Shown: positions 2,960 through 16,859, counted from the whole stretch's first letter. The stretch: 63,712 nt of DNA, filler included, from Craspedostauros australis (GCA_030167865.1; 8 parts of 8 records of this genome joined end to end with filler, not necessarily neighbours in it); one strand, 5' to 3'. Notes: generated by a model from the letters alone, not told the origin. Numbers and translations are program-made.

Positions 2960-5312
2960 TCAGCCGCCTCCACCAGATAGTATGCTGCTCAAGCTTGCTG
3001 CGAACTCACGAACAATATCCTTGGTTGCCTGAGTTGGGCAGTACACCAGCTCTTTGGGCTTTGCGTTCTTCGCGGCGGTTGCGTCGTTTGCTTCGTCCTG
3101 TTCGTTTTCCATGGTGTCAACGTCCGTGCCTGCGCCTGCGACTGCCAATTTGCGCCGCTTGTTCGAGGTTTTGACTGGCTCGTACAGTTTCGAATGCTTG
3201 ATGATACGTTCATGAGCTGCGACGAATTTACGATTCACGCATTCATCACAGTCCCAGGAGCCTTCGGGGACGGACTGCAGCCTTGGCACTAAGCAGCTGA
3301 TGTGATACTCCCCTTCGCATGCATCGCAGATGATGAGGCTGCCCCCGTCGCCACAAACTGCGCATTCATCGACCCCATGAACGGACTTCGCCATCTTGGC
3401 CTCTCTCTCCTCGACGCACACAGTTTTGAGCACCCGATAGTGGGCTGATTTCTTGAAGGTGCCGAGGTAGTACGTCAGGCAGCTGACCATGCTTTTTCCA
3501 ATTGATTTGGATACAGCCTTGAGGTCCTTCCGAAGGCGGAATATTTCTGCATGGAATCTCTCTTTTTCGTCGTCTGTCCAATCTGAACCGTCCACAGGTT
3601 TGATGTCTTCCACTTCTTTTCCGGCATCGCTTACCCGGTAGTCTCTCTTGTGCAACACTGCGAGCGCATTCTCCCATCGATTGCGCGGGACGCCCTCTTG
3701 TAAGAATAATAACACATCTTTTGCATTTCCTTTGGAGTGGTCCCATATTTGATCGCAGCTGCGTGGTTGCAACAGAGTAAGTTATGGGTCGGTTGGGTGG
3801 GTGGGCGGGTAATTGTGTAAATGTGTGAATGAAATGGCGGAGTAATGGGTCCATGGATGGGTTAGGCGGAATCGTAATGTGCACAAAGTGGCCAGCAGTT
3901 ACAGATGCGATCAATGGCGTCCGTGCAACAAAAGATCCTGTGTGATTTTGTCTCAACATGTCACCGGAATGCCACGGCAATGTCCGGCACAGGGTGACAA
4001 GCATCGTATGGCATGATGGGATGGGATGCGATGCGATTCTGCGCCGCAGGGCGTGATGCGTATGTATGTACCGACGCAAGCTTTCGAGACATGCACTTCG
4101 GCTGTCTGAGAATCTCCACCTCGTTGCCAGCACTTACTACGTTCCGCTTTCGCTTCGGGTTGAAGGAGTGGATCCGTACTGTACATGAGCCTTCGGGAGA
4201 TTCGTTGCTTGGAAGTCGTCTCCGACTCTGCTCGATTTCTTCGGGTAGATTGTGCCACCATCCTTCCAGCTCAAATCTATCCGCGTTTCTGATTTCGATG
4301 TGCCACGCGCAGATCGACGGTTGGTTGGCGAAGGAGAAGCGGGCTGATGTTTCAGACTGGATGATGGGATATCCTTCACTTCGGCAACGCCAGATCGGGC
4401 CTTGATCAATCGGTCGGCAATGGCTGCCTCGTCGTCATTCTTTCTTTCGAGAATCCTTGTGATAACCAACCGGATCCGATCGAAATAATCGACGCCTCTT
4501 TTCCCATTTTCTCGTGTTATGTGCGGTGGGAAGAAGAGGCCAGTCACCAACTTGCATCCTATTGATTTTGTCTACTCGCACGAGTAGAATGCATTGTTGG
4601 TGGCGTTTCCAAGCCGCAAAGAGAATGATAGTGGTGCGCAACATTCGGCAAGCGTTTCAAGTAAATTGACGGTCGATGTATGGGTGAGTGTGTGTGTACC
4701 GGTACGATCATTGAGTATGCAAGCGCGCAGGGTGCTCGCAGGTGCTCTGTTCCAGAGTATGAAACAACTCTCTGCGAGTGCTCCGGGAGAGCATAATAGC
4801 AGCAAGTTCTCGTAAGTGTGTGCCGAGCGTGGTGAGAGTGCACTGGAGCACGGGTATTCCTCAACTCTTTTCAAGCACGATGCTGCGGCTAGCGCCGAAA
4901 GCACAAATGTCTAACACCATCGCACAGACACCTTGGCATGGCAACGTGCACTTCCATTCGATACGCTCGTGTGGTATTCCACGTAGTGCGAGCTAGCACA
5001 CTGTGTGTGTTTGCGACATACCCTCGTCCAGCCAATTTCCTCCAGCAGTGGCCACACCAATGTCCAAAAGACTTTGATCAGCTCTCGTTTCTTTCCTCCA
5101 TATCCCAGGCCCGATGTCAAGTGTGCTTCTGACTTGTACATTGGTTGTTCCCCGGCATTCGATGATGCTGAAGGATTATCATCATCGTGAGCCTTGGCAG
5201 TCATGGTGGCAATAGCGGTGGCAGTCGAGGAGCCTTCGGTTTCTGCTGAGGTCGGTTTTGTCTGTTGTTGGATGGGTTCCTCCTCTACCGCGTCGTCAAA
5301 CTGAGATGACAT
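2960..5312 (-). CDS. Chromatin regulator with ELM2, SANT and PHD-finger domains (multi-exon)
   Basis: Exons are about 5312-5022, about 4558-4138 (ELM2-like SRVGDDFQATNLP) and 3758-2960. The last exon has a SANT-like segment (WTDDEKERFHAEIFRLRKDLKAVSKSIGKSMVSCLTYY) and a PHD C4HC3 (CAVCGDGGSLIICDACEGEYHISC..VPEGSWDCDEC). The exon1-exon2 junction is not fully resolved. Confidence 0.85.
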
Positions 5313-5428
5313 AGAACAGTTGGTTAGACTGGATCGTCGTGACGGTATTGATGCCACGACGAATGTTCACTGCCGGAATAGTATGGTACGCCTTTGGTAC
5401 GTATGAAAGGCCTCCGAATGTTTGTCGG

Positions 5429-5956: not shown

Positions 5957-7747
5957 TCAATCTACTTTGCGATACAGGACATTGGACGTTTCACGAACAT
6001 CGAGCGACCTAGCGGAGTACTGATCCATCGAGTCCAAGGATACCTCGATTCCGCTTGCAATGTTGGCGGCGTTACATTTGATCAGCACGGGGAATTTGGA
6101 AGGTTGCAGTCGCTCTCGTTCAGCTGCTTCAAACTGAGCACGGATTTCCACGGTCTTGCTTGGCGCGAGGCTGTCAAGCGTCCATGATATTGTGCGTTTC
6201 AACCCATCCCAGACCCCATCCTTCTTCGACATGCTGACGGTTTCGCCGATCATATCGGGCGGGACGACCATGATGATGGCAATCTGCGTCAGGGCAAATT
6301 TGTTGCCTGGATTGGCACGGATCCGAACTCCCACACGGCAGATACCTTCCAGATGCTGCACTTTGGTTTTCAACAGCTGCGGTACCAGTGATATGTGGTG
6401 ATAGCAAAGCGATGGTGAATCGTTAGAGCGCGTTTGTTGAATGCAACCACAATCCGTGGATACAACCACTGGTGCTTGGTTGGTGCGTTGGTTGCAAAGT
6501 CGAATGCTGTCGCTGTCGCTGTTGTTGCTGCGTCTTGGGTCATTGCAAGATCACTCAGTTAAACACAACAGGAAGAGAACCATCACGCCGAACTCTGTTT
6601 ATGTTCGTAGTGACAACATACGTACCAATGGAATGGGCCGCACACGAGGTGAGCACCTGTAACAAAATATGGGACCTTCCAGATGCTCCTTGTGTTCCAA
6701 CCGTACCCGCACAACTTCTGTGAATGGCTCCGACGCATACTTGTCGTGCTTGGATTTGACGTCGTTGGCTGCCTTGCCGAAACATTCCGATTGTTCGAGA
6801 TGGGCTTTTGGATCGCGAATGATGACGTAGACGTGCTCTTTGGGATGCGTGGAGGATTGCAGCTGTGAAATAGAGGGAGGCAAAGGTTTGGCGAAGACGG
6901 GAGGAAAGAAGGACAGTGGACGAAGGTACAGGAGAGCAACCCGTACGGAATCTGATGAGTATGGTGCGACGTCTTTCGCACCTTCTTCGTACAAGTTGCC
7001 GGGAAATGAAAGAACGGCCACAAGCTCCTCGAGATGCAATGCGCTGTGATGCAATCAGTCAATCTGTGTATCCAACCCACGCAACAGACAGCGCACATGA
7101 CGTACAAATATGGCGCCGGATACCCGACACGCAGGTGGACTTGCGACGTCATCAAAGAGAATGGATATTTGTTCATGCACAAGCGCTTTGAGCTTCCCTC
7201 GTCGGACAGGCGAGGATCGCGGTGGCGGGAACTTGGACAATGGTATTACGGCAGTCTGCGCCTTGGGTGACGCCGCTGGTGATGACCGTGATCTTTCCTT
7301 CTTCGGTGTGCGCGGCTTTGGAAAGAAGTCACGTTCGGCTGCTGCAAAGTCGAAACTATCTTCGAGGGGATCCATGAACGCTTTGGTTGGTGGTGTTGCT
7401 GCCAACGTCGCTGCCGCTGCCGCTGCTGTTGCCGCTGCGGCTGCCGCTACTTTCGATGGACCGTCTGCATCAGTTGCCGCGCTCGTGGTGCGGGTGGCCC
7501 GATGCCGTGAATCAATGCGTGAGCTTTGCTGCGTCTTGTGCCTTGATGAATCCGTGGCGATGTCGCCGTTGCTTGATGACTTTTGAGATTGGAAAGTTGT
7601 CGCTGCGATATTGCGCTGATCGTTGGATGCTGATCTGGTTTGCTTGGAGTTGGAAAACCGCGGACTTGATTCATTCATGGAAGGGATGGGCATCCCGTCA
7701 TCCAATTCCTGGTGCTGCAATCTGGCAAGCCGTTTCCTTGCCGCCAT
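5957..7747 (-). CDS. Mu-homology domain (muniscin/adaptin-mu C-terminal-like) protein, paralog A, 3 exons
   Basis: Exons 7747-7106, 6862-6626 and 6376-5957, all phase 0 with GT-AG introns. Disordered N-terminus. C-terminal beta-rich region RVGVRIRANPGN..IAIIMVVPP..GVWDGLKRTISWTLDSL..FPVLIKC resembles muniscin-type MHD. Confidence 0.7.
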
Positions 7748-8615
7748 CGTCGCACAATATTTGATTCGATTCGATTTTACTTGGCTTGGCGTTGCTTTGA
7801 TTTGCTTTGATTCGGGGAACGCCCGTGTCCTTTGAGATCACGAGTGCGGGATGAGTGTGACCAGAGCAGTGTGCGTACAGCCGCAATGAGCAAAGCCCTC
7901 CAATGAACCGTTTTGATGAGCCAAAGGAAAACAGAATGGCTATCGAACTTTGGTTGGCTGGCTGGCTGGATGGATCGTTGCCTTGCGTTGCCTTGCCTTG
8001 CCTTGCTTTGCATTCTCTCTCTAGAACCCCCCGCAGCCATGCATCCAACACAATCGTCCTTGGCTTGTGTGGTATTATGTTATGTACGACCTATGAGCAT
8101 GGTATAATGCCATGCACTCCACTCCTCCTTCTCCAGACCATGCTCTCCTGTTCTCTGTTTCCGCCTGTTTCTGCCAAAGTTGGACTTTCTCATTCTTCCT
8201 CTCTCTGCCTCTCTTGGCGCACCTGTTGGGCTTGCGTGCGTGTCTGGCAGATACTTTTGGTCGGTTGATTCGTCAGACTCGAAATTGTTGACAACTCATC
8301 CGGATGCGGAACGTGGGCGAGGTTTTGTTGTCCCTCGTTTTCTGCCACCAACAATGCCAACAACAACCAAGATACAAGACACGAGTGCAGAGAGCAGGAA
8401 CCACGATGGCGACAACAGAAGCGACCATGGCGCATCTCATCGCTCTGCGCTGCGCCAAGCACTCCATCCCATCGAATTCGTCCAAGCACCATCGACGACT
8501 GCAGATACACAACGCCAGCAAGTTGTATTCGGAACGGTACAGACACGACAGCCAAGACTCGTGCGCACACGAAGTTGAGCCAAGCACCATACGACCTACT
8601 CGTACGAGCAGTACA

Positions 8616-10055
8616 ATGACGGCAAACAATGACACGGCCGATTCAGTGTTCGAGGCCTTTGATTCGAAAAAGAACCCACCCAACCCAACCGCAAGCGAAG
8701 ACTATGATCCGTTCGGTGTTGGCAAGCCCACCTCGCCATCCGAAGCATCACCCCTGAAGCGACAGACGACGGCCCCGCTGCCTCCCAAAGTCGCCATTAA
8801 GTTCATCGTCCATGAGGATGTTTCATCGACAGCCATCACGGGCACAGCCGACGAGGGAGCGTCAGAGGTCTTTGCCAACGGGACTATCCAAGTGAGTCGC
8901 TTCGGAGCGTACTAGCTTGTAGAGTAGATTATTCATCAACTCTATTGAACACTGGCTACTTGATCAGGTCATCTCCTTTCGCTCATTCATGCATCCCAAT
9001 TTAGTGAAAACGACTCTTCCATTCCGCCTGTTCGGCCCATTGCAACCAATTTTATGTACGAGTATGCTCACCCCCATCTCCAATCGCCATGCTCGACAAC
9101 GACTCACAAATTCCTCATTTTGGACAATGGCAACAACAGTGTCAAATCAATTCGTCGGACGCGCTCAAGAATGCACCATTTCAAATCATCTTGAGGTCGA
9201 AAGCGCCACAATCGCAGCAACCACAGCAACCACAGCAAGAACCCTCCGCAATCACATTCGTGCCTTCCCCGGCGTACTCAAAAATAGAAAAGGCAGGGCA
9301 GCAACAGCGAGGAAGCAAAAGTCAGAATGTTGTCAAGATTTCCAAAAGTATGATCAGTTTCGTCCCGGTTGGGGCGTATCAGATAAAGGAGAAGATTGTA
9401 CACATGCCATTGGTACGTATTTCACTTGCTCTCGTTGTGGTGGGTGACTGGATGGATGAATGCGTGCATGTGGTAGTCTCTTTGGTGTTTTGCTTCCTCT
9501 TCCACAAGTCTTCTTCAAAACGATTTCACGTTTGAGTTGAATCGAGATGAGGAATATTCTCATGCGACTTCGCTCATTCCACTATTTGCGATTCTCATGC
9601 CCTACTCTATCTGCGGTCGTCATTGTCTTCAGCTTTTGGAACGCAAGATCGACCGCAAGGGATCGGCCATACAGATCGCTGTGCAAGTCCGATCCAAGAT
9701 GGATAACTCGTCCGACCTCACGCATATCCGCATCACAGCCTCCATCGCACCAAGCGTCCTCGGCAGCTCCATTACCATGGTGTCCGGCAATGGAGAGTTC
9801 GATAAAATGAAACGTACCATATCCTGGAAGCTCGATCGTCTGCCAAAGGGAGAGAGCTTCATGGTGAGCGCCAAAGCCCGCGTGCAGGAGGATGTTCCGA
9901 CTACACCGAAAGAGTTCCCCGTCATGCTGCGGTGTTCGGCGCAGGATCAAATCAGCACAGTGTCATTGCAGGCGGCCAAGCTCCCCAATCATCCCGCCTC
10001 CATTGCGTCGCAGTTGCAGTCCCGATCGTTCCTGTTGGTGCATCATCTCAAATAG
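8616..10055 (+). CDS. Mu-homology domain (muniscin/adaptin-mu C-terminal-like) protein, paralog B, 3 exons
   Basis: Exons 8616-8891, 9140-9412 and 9633-10055, all phase 0. Short acidic N-terminus with a DPF motif (YDPFGVG). C-terminus QIAVQVRSK..IRITASIAP..GEFDKMKRTISWKLDRL..FPVMLRC. Confidence 0.7.
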
Positions 10056-11026
10056 GGCGTGAAATTGGGCATTTAGGAGCAAATCACACAGCGCAAAAAG
10101 GGTCTGGCTCTTTTGTTTGTACTGGAATCTACAGCACGATGCCCTACTCGAATCGAAAGCGATGCTTCTCCGTAATTCTTTGCGTAATTACAAACACAGA
10201 CATGTGAGACGATCGCAGATCGGAGTGGAGTGCAGCAGGTTGTCATCCGGATCTGATCGTTCCTTTCCGCGCTACACATGAAGTTTAGGCTTCGTTTCCA
10301 TTGATTCCTGTTTGGGAGTGTTGATCCGAATCGCTCGAACTAATCCAATTTCGTCACCAAACCCATCGGCGTTAAAGTACGGTTACGAGCTACTTTCGTG
10401 AGGGAAGCTGACCGATTTGAATTTTGCGGCCAATGATGCGGAACAAAATCGAGAGGGAGGTTGTGGAACACGATGGTGGTGGCGATGAGTGTTGTGGACA
10501 GACAAGAGTACGATCGAACCACGTTGCTGCTGGTGTTGGTGATGTTGCCAACAACAACGATAAAGACGACAGGAGCGACCGCGTTCCCACCATCGAGACC
10601 ATCACTCCTGACCGCATTGCTGCCTCCGCCCTCGCGTCACGTTCGGAGCAAAGCACACTGCTCCACAATCACCATCGCTGGTATCGACATTGCCTTTATT
10701 CGATTCCGACACCACCACAGAGCCTCGATCAAGACAACCCCACCCTCACTTGTTGGCATTGCCTATTTCTCTCCAATCCCCGTGTCACACGATCAACAGT
10801 GCCATTAATACATACACCCACAGCATCTCCTCGCAGCAGTAACAACATCAACCACAACTGCGGCAACCACAAGAACGAACGAGACGACCTGCTTCACTCG
10901 TCATCCAACATCTCTACCACCATACTCGCATAACAGAAGTGGCACGCGCCTGGACTATTCGTGCATTCAATACATTCACATCAGAAATACTCCCCTCTCC
11001 ACAATTCGAAATACCACACTGCCACA

Positions 11027-11592
11027 ATGACGTACCGATCGAAAGGACGGCACATTGTCGAGTTGATCATTGTGAGTCAAGCGATGGATTGTCGCGTGGT
11101 TGGGAGACGGACTGCTACGATGTAATCTGGTCTACTCCATCGTACTCTGCTCCACTGCATTGAAGCGTGAAGTATCTCGCCATTGCAAAAAGACTTGCTC
11201 TTGATAATGTTGCACATCGCCTTCCATTGCGCCGCGTCGCATGGCGCTGCATGACACGGTATCAACAAATACATGCGCTCATCACTCCTTTTGCATTGCC
11301 TTCATTTGACCCACGCCAAACAACGAACAATCAAACAATATTAACATGAAACACAACGCAGGCTATCTGTTTCTGTGCCTTCCTGGTCGGCTTCATCACG
11401 ATTCTTTGCATCGGGAATTACTTTCGTGCCAAACGAGCGCAAGAACGACAGCGGCAGCGGCGACTGGCAAAACTGGCTGCGGCGAACAATAATCCGAACG
11501 GCCCGCCCGGCATGTACGCTACGGATGCCAACTATTCCGCATCATACGAGGCGCCTCAGCATGCGGTACCGACGGGCGGGGTGCAGGCGTAG
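11027..11592 (+). CDS. Small (91 aa) single-pass membrane protein, 2 exons
   Basis: Exon 11027-11071 (MTYRSKGRHIVELII), intron GTGAGT..TATTAAC..CGCAG (11072-11361), exon 11362-11592 (AICFCAFLVGFITILCIGNYFRAKRAQERQRQRRLAK...GGVQA*). The splice joins two halves of one hydrophobic helix, followed by a basic stop-transfer stretch. Confidence 0.65.
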
Positions 11593-12657
11593 ATCAGCAG
11601 AGCGTTGCGAAGAACTGCGTCATGGTGGAAGATCCTGGATGACGACACGCGCACATCACACAAGTTTCAAAAGCGTGGTGTGGAAATGGAATGCTCTGTG
11701 GCGCTCGGACAGCATTTGGCATGAAGGCACACGCACATTGGTTTATGCGACAGCGTACCTGATACTCGTACGTTGGCTGCGTATACGTGGTTGTGCACAA
11801 ATGCAACCGACATGAACATACGTGTGGCAGAGCACAAAGCACTCTCTTGAACGAATCGCCGATGAGATGAAACGCAACTAGAATGATGAGCGAAAAAATC
11901 TGCATGATATGATGAGATGAGGTGCACAGTCCCCGTCGGCGCGATGCCAACGCGATGATCAGAACATCGCAGAGTCGATCAAGACTCCTCCTTCAAAATC
12001 ATCTGGGTTGGCAATCTGCGATTCTCCAGGCGCCAATGGTCTCGCTGAGACAATAGATAGTCAAGGGAACGGCTCGTGGGTTAGAACAGGATAGGACAGG
12101 GCAGGACAAGACCAGGCAAAGGTTGGACGAAGAGGAGGGGAGGATTCAAGGTCCCGAGTAAGCAGCCATTGAAAATGTACCAATAACAAGAACACATCAT
12201 GAAACCACGAACTCGATTGCTGGGTTTGTGCTGGAAAGGGTGCGGGACCATCACGGTGCGAGTACGAGTACGAGTAGAGAGGTATTGGACATCGAGCAGA
12301 GTAGATTGGAGTAGTACCACAAGCAGATCGCGCAGTGAATTGTTGATTTTTCACGATACTATCTTTGAGGTACTGTGACATACCTGTTCGGAAACAACAG
12401 AGTTGGTGTGATGATGACGTAGGATCGACACCCACAGACAAGATCGGAGATCGGCAGCGATGTCTGCTCCCTCCGTCCCACATTTCCAACTCACCCAATC
12501 CTCCCATCTGCATTCATCGCACAAAACCTGACGGTCGCGTTCATAACCATACCCTGATCTACCATACTCTGCTCTGCCCGATTCTCCAAGTACATACGAC
12601 GAGGCACCTGGTTGTGACGACTTGATCCATGCGACAATCACACATTTAAAGTTGAAG

Positions 12658-13362
12658 ATGAATCCGCTCCCCTTCCTCATCAGCGTCTTGGTCCTCCTGG
12701 CTCTCGCGGATGCCGCTGCGGCCTTCACGCCACCACGCATGATCCGCACGACAACCGTTCAGCTCTTCGCGGGACCTTCAATTCAGGATGCTTCCGCAGT
12801 CCTTCGAGAATGGGATCAGCTGTATAATCCGGAAACGCTCGCAACGTCCACCACCTCCACCAGTCTGGACCAGCTACGTCCCAAATTGGTGTCATCCGTG
12901 CTGGCATTATCGCAAGCCGCGACGGACGAGCGCAATGCCGATTCGACGACGGGACGGTGTATGCTGGGGATCTGCGCTCCATCGGCAGGTGACGCTGTGG
13001 AGGTGTTGAAATCGTGGGTCACTGCGCTGGGATTACCGCGCGGGTTGCTGCATGGGATGGACAAGGACGGCGTGCCGCTGGAGCTGGATGGCGGCGTGTA
13101 CATCAAGTACAACTCTGGTGGCGTGTACACCTTTGCCGATATTCGCAAGTCGGGGATGGGATTTGATGCGCTGTGGAAGCCGGGTGATGCTCTGCTGGAG
13201 CCGTATGACGGAACGTATCGCGGTGTGTACTTTCAGGTGGAGCTGGCGGATGGCGAGTTCCGACAGTACATGGTGCCGTTGGATCTCTTCTTCGAAGCAC
13301 CTTCGCGAGCTGCAGAACAGGCGGCAACCGCACCCGCAACCTCCTCTGCCAAAGAGTCATGA
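12658..13362 (+). CDS. Plastid-targeted DUF1824-like protein (cyanobacterial-type family of unknown function)
   Basis: Signal peptide plus ASAFAP-type motif (ADAAAA|FTPPR). Motifs LGICAPSAGDAVEVLKSW, GGVYIKYN, PYDGTYRGV and terminal PLDLF match my recollection of DUF1824. Confidence 0.7.
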   Translation: MNPLPFLISVLVLLALADAAAAFTPPRMIRTTTVQLFAGPSIQDASAVLREWDQLYNPETLATSTTSTSLDQLRPKLVSSVLALSQAATDERNADSTTGRCMLGICAPSAGDAVEVLKSWVTALGLPRGLLHGMDKDGVPLELDGGVYIKYNSGGVYTFADIRKSGMGFDALWKPGDALLEPYDGTYRGVYFQVELADGEFRQYMVPLDLFFEAPSRAAEQAATAPATSSAKES

Positions 13363-13568: not shown

Positions 13569-16304
13569 CTAGACCATGTCGTCACCTTTCACAACGACCC
13601 AGTCGTCATCCGTCTCCATGCCAACCATCTTGGAGTATTCGCGAATGCTGTCCCCGGCCGCTGCCAGGCGTTGTTCCACACCCGTCAGCCCAACCTTCGT
13701 GGCCTTCATCACCATCGCGGTGCTCTTGGTGTCTTCCTTTTGGAATCGTATCGGTGGGAATGGCAATCCGCTACCGACCTTGCTCCGAGTTTCGATCGTC
13801 GCGATGTCCTCTTTCCACTGCTGGCACTTTTCGTTCAACAGACGCAATTCTTGGAAGTAGTCGTACTCTGCCTGCGTGATGGTGGGTTGTGAATGAACCG
13901 CGGACTCCGCGACGGAAGTGCCACGGAGGCTCAACGAGGCTGCATTCTGCTGCAACTTCTCGGTGCGTCCTCGGATCGCGGCTGCCTGGTCGTTCAAGCG
14001 TTGGATGGAGACCTTCAGGGTATGCAGTTGCTTCATCTGGCTGCGATGCAACACTGTCAATTCACTGCGGCGATTGCGGATCAATTGGTTCATCTCCACC
14101 AACGGCAGGACGATGTCTTCGTCGCAACGTTTCTTCATGTCCGCAGACACGGCCAGCAGCTGAGGTGTGATGTCTTCTTGTGGCGTGGACGTCCCGACGA
14201 TGCGTGTCATTCCTTTCAGCCCAGTGATCACTTTCTCCGACAATGGCTTGATGAGAACATGGAGGGGGTTTGTATCCCCCAGAACTGCCAAAGGATCCTT
14301 GTCATCCGTGAGGAGATTGGTGGCTTGTGTCGATGCTCCCATCGATTCGATCTCATTGAAGTGGCGGCTCTCAGTGATGTTTGCGGGCACCTGCGCCGTC
14401 CAAACATGGAGCAGGGCAGAAATGAGTTGACAGAATATGGCATGCATTGGTACGTCGTCAGAAAATGAATGTATTTCAGTCGCAGCAACAGCAGCAGCAA
14501 ACTTGCACAAACACAAACACACTACACATGCACGCACGCATGTACAACAACAGCGCATCTGGTACGAGTATGAACTTACACACATGCCGTTGGAAAGTTG
14601 GCAAATCATGGAATGGCCAAAGTTGGCATCGCTGCTGACGGCAGCACCAGACAGTGCCACATCTGCGGATGTAACATTGAGGATGGACCAGGCAGTTGCC
14701 TTCGTGCTTTGAGATGTCCCGAGCCGCTGGAATACATGGGTGGAGACCGCGCGGATGGAGGATTTGGTGATATAGTGGATGTCAGTTTCGTTGACGGGAT
14801 CTGGCAGCAACATGATGTCGTCATGTCTCGTGGCGTACTCCTGTTGTTCAGAACTGCTCCAATCGATGCGTTGCAGCATGATGCCCTGTTGCATGGTACT
14901 GTTCAGTTCCATGGCATCCTCCATGGTCTCCAACGAGAAGCGTGGAATGCAGAAGCTCGGTGACAGCACGGCGATATCGATGATGTCCGAATCGTACCCA
15001 ATAGCAACACCGACGAAGTCAGGCGCCGTGGAGGCAACGCGCAAGCATTCGATGGAAGTTGCTTTGATCATGTGATTCTCAGGCTCGTCCATCGTCATGA
15101 CGGGCCCTTGAGCCTGGACAGGCCACTTGGATGCCTCCGTGCGAGCCCGCGCGGTGACGAATGCGCTGCGACCATCTCCCGCAAAGGTGTCCGACATGAA
15201 TATCCGGGCCGCGCGCAGCTGTCTCCATCTGGGCGTTTCAGGCGGACATGCCTCAAGCTGGTCCGTAAGAAACTGCTGCGCGGTGTCGATGGATTGCTTC
15301 GGGACGACCGTCTCTGGGAAGAGGATGGGCGAGGCAAGGAAGACCTCGCGTGCGCCCTCGATGAGGAGCACGGAAAGACTCGACAGCAGGGACAAGCCGA
15401 AGGACCGAACGAAGCAAAAGTCCGTGATGCGGTTCGCGTCACCCTCCATACCCTCGGTTCCAAACATCAGCGGTGTTTCCACAGCCTGCGTGCGGCCATC
15501 GTAGAGATGCAGGCCGTACTCCGCGGTTTGCTTGTCAAGCATGAGCATGGCCATGGATCCACGGGGGCACATGACGTCAAACCCATCATGCCGCTGTGGC
15601 GCCGGACGTATACGGATGATGTTGGCTGACGTGCTGCTGGGCAGCATGATGCAATCGAATGGTTCCGTGACATTGCGCAAAGTTCCCTCTGTGATGGAGC
15701 TGTTGCTGCCTCCTCTGCCCGTGGCAAATCGCTGATTCTGCGATCGCTGCTCCTTGGGTGAGGAAGTGTCGAAGCATACCTCAAAGAGGAATACCTCTCG
15801 CTTGGTGTAAAGACAGAGCAACGACGCGTGCTGCTTGCGAGAGCTGCTGCTGTGGATGTCGCCCGTGCGTGACGGCAAACTCAAGGCTGGACTTTTGCTG
15901 GCCTGATGGCCATTGACATCGACGCACAGCAGCTCGGTCGGCGGGTACCGCTGCAGCGCGTTGCGGATCCTTTGGCTGAGCTGCGTGCGTGCATGCGTGA
16001 AGGCGTCCTCGTTGGGATTGGCAGAGCTCTCCGGAAGCGGCAAGCTCCGCGTTTCGATGGTGGGAGCACCATTGATCGTGACCAAAGAATGGATGAAGTT
16101 CCCTCCCGTGCTCAAGCAGGAGAGCTTGACGGAGGCGCCCTCCTCTCTGCCCAACTGCGGCGCCGCATCCCATCCCACCCCCAATGCAGCAACCGGAGTC
16201 ACATCCGGTGCATCCTGACGTCTCGTCTGCGAGCTCGATCGCTGCTGAAATGGAGACTCGTTCGGTGAGAACGAAAGTTCCTGCGAAAATCCAAACCTCG
16301 GCAT
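13569..16304 (-). CDS. NUP88: Nucleoporin Nup88/Nup82-like protein
   Basis: N-terminal beta-propeller-like region (ITDFCF, VFLASPILFP, PVQAQGP, LLPDPVNETDIHY) and a C-terminal coiled coil with QPTITQAEYDYFQELR. Probable in-frame intron at 14391-14579. Confidence 0.75.
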   Translation of the reverse strand: MPRFGFSQELSFSPNESPFQQRSSSQTRRQDAPDVTPVAALGVGWDAAPQLGREEGASVKLSCLSTGGNFIHSLVTINGAPTIETRSLPLPESSANPNEDAFTHARTQLSQRIRNALQRYPPTELLCVDVNGHQASKSPALSLPSRTGDIHSSSSRKQHASLLCLYTKREVFLFEVCFDTSSPKEQRSQNQRFATGRGGSNSSITEGTLRNVTEPFDCIMLPSSTSANIIRIRPAPQRHDGFDVMCPRGSMAMLMLDKQTAEYGLHLYDGRTQAVETPLMFGTEGMEGDANRITDFCFVRSFGLSLLSSLSVLLIEGAREVFLASPILFPETVVPKQSIDTAQQFLTDQLEACPPETPRWRQLRAARIFMSDTFAGDGRSAFVTARARTEASKWPVQAQGPVMTMDEPENHMIKATSIECLRVASTAPDFVGVAIGYDSDIIDIAVLSPSFCIPRFSLETMEDAMELNSTMQQGIMLQRIDWSSSEQQEYATRHDDIMLLPDPVNETDIHYITKSSIRAVSTHVFQRLGTSQSTKATAWSILNVTSADVALSGAAVSSDANFGHSMICQLSNGMCVSSYSYQMRCCCTCVRACVVCLCLCKFAAAVAATEIHSFSDDVPMHAIFCQLISALLHVWTAQVPANITESRHFNEIESMGASTQATNLLTDDKDPLAVLGDTNPLHVLIKPLSEKVITGLKGMTRIVGTSTPQEDITPQLLAVSADMKKRCDEDIVLPLVEMNQLIRNRRSELTVLHRSQMKQLHTLKVSIQRLNDQAAAIRGRTEKLQQNAASLSLRGTSVAESAVHSQPTITQAEYDYFQELRLLNEKCQQWKEDIATIETRSKVGSGLPFPPIRFQKEDTKSTAMVMKATKVGLTGVEQRLAAAGDSIREYSKMVGMETDDDWVVVKGDDMV

Positions 16305-16859
16305 CTCTCGGCCGTCCTTGTTGGCCGTCCTTGTTGGCTGTGCTTGTTGGTCAGGCTTGTTGGCTGTGGCTATCAGGAAGACGTAAGCAGCGATGGCACT
16401 TTGAGGACTCGAAAGCCGGGAGACGAAGAGTGGGAGGTGCAGGGTGATGGATCCCTGAACTCCGAATGTGAAATGATACCGGTACTATGGTCAGGATGGT
16501 CAGGAATACCGAAGTCGACGGCTTGTGCAACTGTCACAGCAACAGTGATGGAAGCCGTGTCTGGCGTCGACGACGGAAATGATCCTCTCTCTTCGTGTTC
16601 TGCCACGACCTCTTGTTACCGTTGCTTTCGCGGTCGAACCAAGTTTCTTGACTCAGTCGACTGCACCCGCAATTCAAATTTCGAAATCGTTTCTTGTGCG
16701 GCTTTGCCCCATAATTCACCCACCCATCAAATCCATCACCGACTTCCACCCGACCTCCATCTGATCGATCTGCCCATGATCTTGATCGCTTCTGCGGCAC
16801 AACCACTGGATACGAGATACACGTAGTCGTAGCGCACGTGCACCACACAACCGCACATC

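Follow-up and report, generated by a model that had tools for sequence, protein, structure and literature searches.

Positions 5957 to 10055 of the window analysed here, a stretch of 63,712 nucleotides from the diatom Craspedostauros australis (GCA_030167865.1; eight parts joined with filler), hold a real, transcribed, head-to-head pair of shortened TCUP paralogs, which we call gene A (minus strand) and gene B (plus strand). TCUP, or TML, is the medium subunit of the TSET/TPLATE complex (PMC12167817, PMC4031984). Together with a third paralog, gene C, which is the ortholog of TCUP1, A and B constitute a family of three members with shared introns, and both of them lack the N-terminal domain of TCUP1. 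On balance, the two are best understood as separate, stand-alone adaptors built on a mu-homology domain (MHD), with putative docking on the AP-2 complex via DPF motifs.

The scenario that we favor for their origin and function is as follows. A truncated TCUP copy would have been duplicated locally and inverted early in diatom history. Without a longin-like domain its products would be unable to occupy the TSET core, and would instead be free to serve as accessory adaptors with a layout resembling that of SGIP1. The scattered DPF motifs may dock on the AP-2 alpha appendage, with the MHD binding cargo or other coat proteins; B would be the higher-expressed, AP-2-associated copy, and A the weakly and separately expressed one. 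The head-to-head layout would be mainly a relic of the duplication, held by slow local rearrangement, and would not in itself speak for a dimer. Endocytosis in diatoms matters for the uptake of iron and phosphorus, and its adaptors are barely known. The diatom TSET inventory is revised to three TCUP paralogs, of which two are truncated, and unlikely to be core subunits, and one is unnamed; in Phaeodactylum the pair corresponds to two specific genes, J43760 and J43761, that are open to testing. Should A and B prove to be free MHD adaptors with DPF tails, diatoms would have repeated, in another form, the transition from TCUP to muniscin seen in animals and fungi.

Gene models and shared introns

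Gene A begins with an exon (7747-7106) encoding a low-complexity tail of ~185 residues and the first strands of the MHD (VHEQIS...GAIF); transcript contigs cover 7106-7395 and 7558-7714 of it, and we infer that the ATG at 7747 is the start codon. Exon 2 (6862-6626) encodes the middle of the MHD, and exon 3 (6376-5957) its C-terminal half and the stop codon. The intervening introns, 6863..7105 (243 nt, GTACGT...AG) and 6377..6625 (249 nt, GTACGTAT...AG), are both bridged by contigs, and translation of the spliced model yields 432 residues. In gene B a short tail containing YDPFG (residues 30-34) is followed by the first MHD strands in exon 1 (8616-8891), the middle of the domain in exon 2 (9140-9412), and its C-terminal half with the stop codon in exon 3 (9633-10055), giving a product of 323 residues. 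Its introns occupy 8892..9139 (248 nt, GTGAGT...AG; contig-bridged) and 9413..9632 (220 nt, GTACGTAT...AG; unbridged, and positioned as in orthologs). All four introns of the pair are GT-AG and of phase 0, with the junctions GAIF|LQS and PIPL|LLKTKV in A, and GTIQ|CQI and HMPL|LLERKI in B. Between the two ATGs lie 868 bp (7748-8615), into which transcript cover of B extends from 8502. The two three-exon genes diverging from about 870 bp that had been called in the initial annotation are thus borne out.

Transcript evidence comes from contigs of one public run, which is RNA by guess only, there being no RNA record for it. Contigs of this probable RNA run cover both genes and exactly skip the intron at three of the four joints (6376/6626, 6862/7106 and 8891/9140). 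At intron 2 of B they stop at 9408 and resume at 9632; because no contig bridges this intron, and intronless orthologs read through the same place, its call rests on homology. A ranking of expression by contig depth was discarded as invalid, given the uncertain nature of the run.

The two proteins are significantly similar (28% identity over 138 residues, E 7e-21), with a local score of 194 against a maximum of 65 among 2000 shuffles, and the protein motifs quoted for them at the outset, together with YDPF in B, are all found in the translations. The equivalence of their intron positions likewise stands. As a hallmark of the pair, however, the introns had to be rejected: the unlinked gene C has the same two phase-0 introns, as do orthologs, so that the match is a trait of the whole family. 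A orthologs on loci L029 and L031 have intron 2 in the same place, as do those of B on L018, L019 and L024; the B genes of L027, L028, L029 and L031 lack it. In Phaeodactylum and the organism of L029, B has shed both introns and A the first, with the genome of the window retaining all four.

A 14-nt identity at both second donors had also been remarked upon. The sequence in question, CCATTGGTACGTAT, is indeed present, and is found exactly twice in the window; it consists of Pro-Leu codons and a GTACGT donor, a form seen in three of the seven donors observed in the genome. A rough estimate of its chance occurrence is 0.001-0.002 per junction and 0.004-0.007 across four. Orthologs retain the position of intron 2 but not these letters, their donors varying among GTATGT, GTAAGT and GTACGT; a near-identical junction occurs in an unrelated ortholog on L019, and blastn comparison of the A and B genes recovered no further gene-level DNA similarity. 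We therefore rejected the identity as a relic of duplication, and treat it as an unusual coincidence.

A family of three TCUP paralogs

Gene C (G000:C4215; L014:4156-7107, minus strand) lies unlinked on another contig and encodes 814 residues, with a conserved N-terminal domain and one FDPF motif; over the final 255 residues its sequence is the same as that of a UniRef protein from Craspedostauros australis. The genome also holds five canonical mu/delta-COP genes, separate from A, B and C. Homolog searches recovered three groups, namely long C-type proteins and short A-type and B-type ones. In a 75-row tree rooted on the long-branch mu genes of this genome, with sampling of TCUP confined to diatoms, B (99/99) and C (92/99) were recovered, and A formed one group save for one long branch; in a 35-row tree the A group had an SH-aLRT support of 91. 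In these trees A, B and C cluster apart from the mu genes of the genome, and a divergent B subgroup is present among the homologs. A-type proteins extend to Chaetoceros tenuissimus, a centric diatom, and the split from TCUP1 is therefore old.

The A gene on the Phaeodactylum locus (L031) clusters with the A of the window and, compared by eye, translates to the sequence that has been catalogued as TCUP2 (J43761), with Phatr3_J43047 being TCUP1 (PMC12167817). Accordingly, A is the ortholog of TCUP2, B that of its neighbor J43760, and C that of TCUP1. The two Phaeodactylum neighbors are placed at chr_2:1403862-1404929 (J43760) and 1405486-1406651 (J43761) in the supplement of PMC5859163. J43760 does not figure among the six Phaeodactylum TSET genes listed in PMC12167817, and neither this gene, nor the truncation, nor the head-to-head arrangement was found in print among the matches listed. 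The initial statement that no such module had been described in diatoms is hence superseded for the A ortholog, and agrees with the matches listed for B and the arrangement.

For structural evidence we relied on the Nitzschia inconspicua orthologs, modeled with AF2, rather than on the spliced proteins of the window. In both models an unstructured tail precedes a confidently predicted, all-beta MHD of ~260 residues with two subdomains. Foldseek searches with the B model placed AP-2 mu first (E 2e-13), with delta-COP, FCHo1 and SGIP1 also at ~1e-13, and VIA gave Z scores of 18.8 to AP-2 mu, over 235 residues, and 17.7 to FCHo1. With the A model the MHDs of FCHo1 and SGIP1 lead (E 1e-15), the margins within both rankings being small. 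On these models both proteins are predicted to adopt the mu-homology fold (Foldseek E 1e-13 to 1e-15), in line with the initial assignment. At the sequence level the signal is fainter: exon 3 alone of the window genes matches PF00928/PF10291 below the cut-offs, and a PF10291 profile search of the genome returned no match anywhere.

The further claim that the two are MHD proteins devoid of F-BAR and longin domains was upheld. No helical domain was detected in exon 1 by Pfam, or in the N. inconspicua models, in which nothing structured precedes the MHD. A profile of the TCUP1 N-terminal domain detected none of the 123 A and B proteins above the inclusion threshold, and recovered the C protein of this genome at E 6e-81. 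The medium-subunit N-terminal domain has been described as a longin domain (PMC4031984). In our searches the TCUP1 N-terminus had no Pfam or PDB sequence match, and P0048, a C-type TCUP1, had no atlas match; via P0004 we obtained a weak longin-like atlas lead (score 0.80, to be taken as a lead only).

A and B share with TCUP/TML the family, the MHD and, in this genome, both intron positions, but differ from TCUP1 in the absence of its conserved N-terminal domain, and they are probably not core TSET subunits. Neither are they muniscins or AP mu subunits. In the muniscins FCHo1/2, Syp1 and SGIP1, too, a disordered region leads into an MHD at the C-terminus that derives from TCUP; SGIP1 is also without F-BAR, and the MHDs of FCHo1 and SGIP1 are the best structural matches of the A model. 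However, A and B as a pair are devoid of F-BAR and carry DPF motifs in their own tails, whereas in animals these motifs lie in the partner Eps15; moreover, muniscins are opisthokont-specific according to PMC4031984, which implies a separate origin. The mu subunits of AP-1 to AP-4 and delta-COP display the same all-beta MHD fold (Z 16-19), but A and B show 10-18% identity to them and have no longin domain. The A profile detected only AP-1 mu among PDB sequences (E 0.002), and in this alignment the Asp of the mu 'FLD' site, which we take to be part of the tyrosine-motif site, is replaced.

Tail motifs, linkage and expression

DPF or DPW motifs are present in most tails (B, 84 of 89; A, 25 of 32; C, 18 of 27), amounting to 131, 37 and 18 occurrences against 3.9, 1.7 and 1.5 in shuffled sequences (12 to 33 times as many). 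The YDPF first noticed in B is thus an instance of a motif conserved in orthologs far beyond chance. In B tails FDPFG is the commonest context and 41 of the 47 linkers between motifs exceed five residues; in A tails 7 of 12 linkers are of five residues or fewer (DPWxxDPW type). Two consecutive DPFs are reportedly required by the MHDs of muniscins, and DPF motifs are reported as ligands of the AP-2 alpha appendage (PMC4731787); the genome encodes an alpha-adaptin appendage and EH-domain genes. Clathrin boxes were found in none of the 89 B or 32 A tails. At two EH-domain loci (L034-L036), which are partial genes with long open frames, there is no DPF, unlike in animal Eps15, the motif lying on the TCUP paralogs.

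A and B are adjacent in five of the seven genomes or contigs in which this could be judged, 12 of the 15 metagenome loci having been excluded from the count for having less than 3 kb upstream of B or being transcript-like. Head-to-head orientation was seen in three, with gaps between the ATGs of 868 bp in the window, 594 bp in Phaeodactylum (L031) and 297 bp in L029. Consecutive accessions or models were found in Nitzschia inconspicua (KAG7359800/801 and KAG7353622/623) and in JGI Psemu1 (324367/324368), which is presumably Pseudo-nitzschia multiseries. The divergent synteny anticipated in other diatoms is therefore present, in Phaeodactylum in the head-to-head form, and several raphid pennates retain the adjacency, but the linkage is not obligatory. 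On L019, from a Nitzschia-like diatom, there is no A in 15.8 kb; a PHD gene lies ~630 bp before B (L019:8621-9259) with the block order of the window otherwise kept, pointing to loss or relocation of A. In Nitzschia sp. Nitz4, A and B lie on the separate scaffolds 391 and 56, with a possible second copy of A. These two non-adjacent cases may represent one lineage.

The flanking genes share in this conservation. A PHD/Myb gene (window 2960-5366, minus strand), a DUF1824 gene (12547-13362, plus strand) and a Nup88-like gene (13569-16484, minus strand) make up, together with A and B, a microsyntenic block that recurs in L019, L028, L029 and L031, with local inversions. Because these neighbors are linked too, the conservation of the A-B linkage is in part general microsynteny.

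Weighing the preferred reading and its alternatives

That two of the three family members adjoin is what suggests a local inverted duplication, and adjacency together with the shared truncation is our ground for this step. The Phaeodactylum ortholog of B shares the tan module of PhaeoNet, which comprises ~256 of 12,177 rows, with the AP-2 mu gene J18142 (PMC7596299). Several observations weigh against the reading of A and B as free AP-2 adaptors of local origin. The ancient inverted duplication initially proposed accords with the age of the paralogs and their retained adjacency, but the tree gives a sister relation of A and B a support of 9.7 and rejects neither A+C (p-AU 0.49) nor B+C (0.17); in BLAST searches A is nearer C than B (103 versus 79 bits). 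The module match of B and AP-2 mu was noticed post hoc and concerns one gene, the clathrin heavy chain being in the green module. The A protein of the window has no DPF or DPW, only DPL, and TCUP1 tails carry DPF too, so that the motif could serve TSET instead of AP-2. Finally, the A-B unit is whole in L029 and Phaeodactylum although, relative to its flanks, it is oriented differently there than in the window, and there could be some selection on the pair.

A different notion is that A and B are TSET satellites, with DPF/DPW motifs that bind the MHD of TCUP1 or of one another, or else a TSET appendage, in a network comparable to that of Eps15 and FCHo. We consider this unlikely. Descent from TCUP, the short linkers of the A tails and the top ranking, with the A model, of the FCHo1/SGIP1 MHDs, which bind paired DPFs (PMC4731787), speak for it. 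However, the motifs of B are mostly scattered, and TCUP2 shows no co-regulation with TCUP1 (correlation 0.10) or the rest of the TSET core (about -0.01); its correlation with AP-2 mu is about -0.08 (PMC12167817; the columns of this table were identified from its diagonal). It is also improbable that one or both proteins function outside plasma-membrane endocytosis, be it at the Golgi or endosome with AP-1 or in a diatom-specific route, with A perhaps condition-specific or drifting. Points in its favor are the long A branches, the loss of DPF in the A of the window, the AP-1 mu matches of the A profile, and the weak expression of A in Phaeodactylum, where its module, darkgrey, is enriched for trafficking and cell-cycle genes (PMC7596299). 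Most members nonetheless keep DPF, and A has been retained from Chaetoceros to the raphid pennates with conserved MHD residues. Rather doubtful, too, is a bolder version of the preferred reading, in which TCUP gave rise independently in diatoms to endocytic initiators of a muniscin-like kind. The two MHD-only proteins, with tails that themselves carry DPF motifs like those of Eps15, would bind AP-2 as well as the MHD of one another or of TCUP1 and thereby bridge TSET to AP-2/clathrin, their head-to-head linkage being selected across the raphid pennates.

The initial annotation had raised the possibility of a co-regulated heterodimeric endocytic adaptor expressed from a shared bidirectional promoter, a proposal that we now regard as very unlikely. 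The divergent starts do lie less than 1 kb apart and are conserved across species, as in bidirectional-promoter pairs, with short gaps in three genomes and consecutive models in two more; both genes are covered by one run, and the unit has stayed intact through local rearrangement. Head-to-head paralogs can encode a heteromer, as do COL4A1 and COL4A2, and pairs of this type are likewise inverted paralogs within 1 kb with linkage kept across species. In contrast to these, A and B are not co-expressed in the one species with data, and their linkage is lost in some Nitzschia-like genomes. In PhaeoNet, J43760 (B) falls in tan, J43761 (A) in darkgrey and TCUP1 in skyblue (PMC7596299), and RNA-seq in Phaeodactylum puts B at 179.5 and 834 and A at 19.7 and 77, a 9- to 11-fold difference (PMC5859163). 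Co-regulation is thus not supported in this species. No 8-mer is common to the three intergenic regions, and 6- and 7-mers are not in excess of shuffles. The absence of A from the L019 block, its separate scaffold in Nitz4 and the synteny of the neighboring genes further count against this reading. Complex prediction with N. inconspicua A (246-503) and B (60-380), run without alignments, scored 0.00 in both of two runs and gives no verdict either way on binding.

Elsewhere in the window, 30990-63712 is a series of pieces with N runs between them, outside contig C2097. Beyond B, at 10574-11592 on the plus strand, lies a transcribed, spliced gene (joint 11071/11362) with a small membrane-spanning end segment, which is 69-79% identical to a gene that follows B in L018, L019 and L024.

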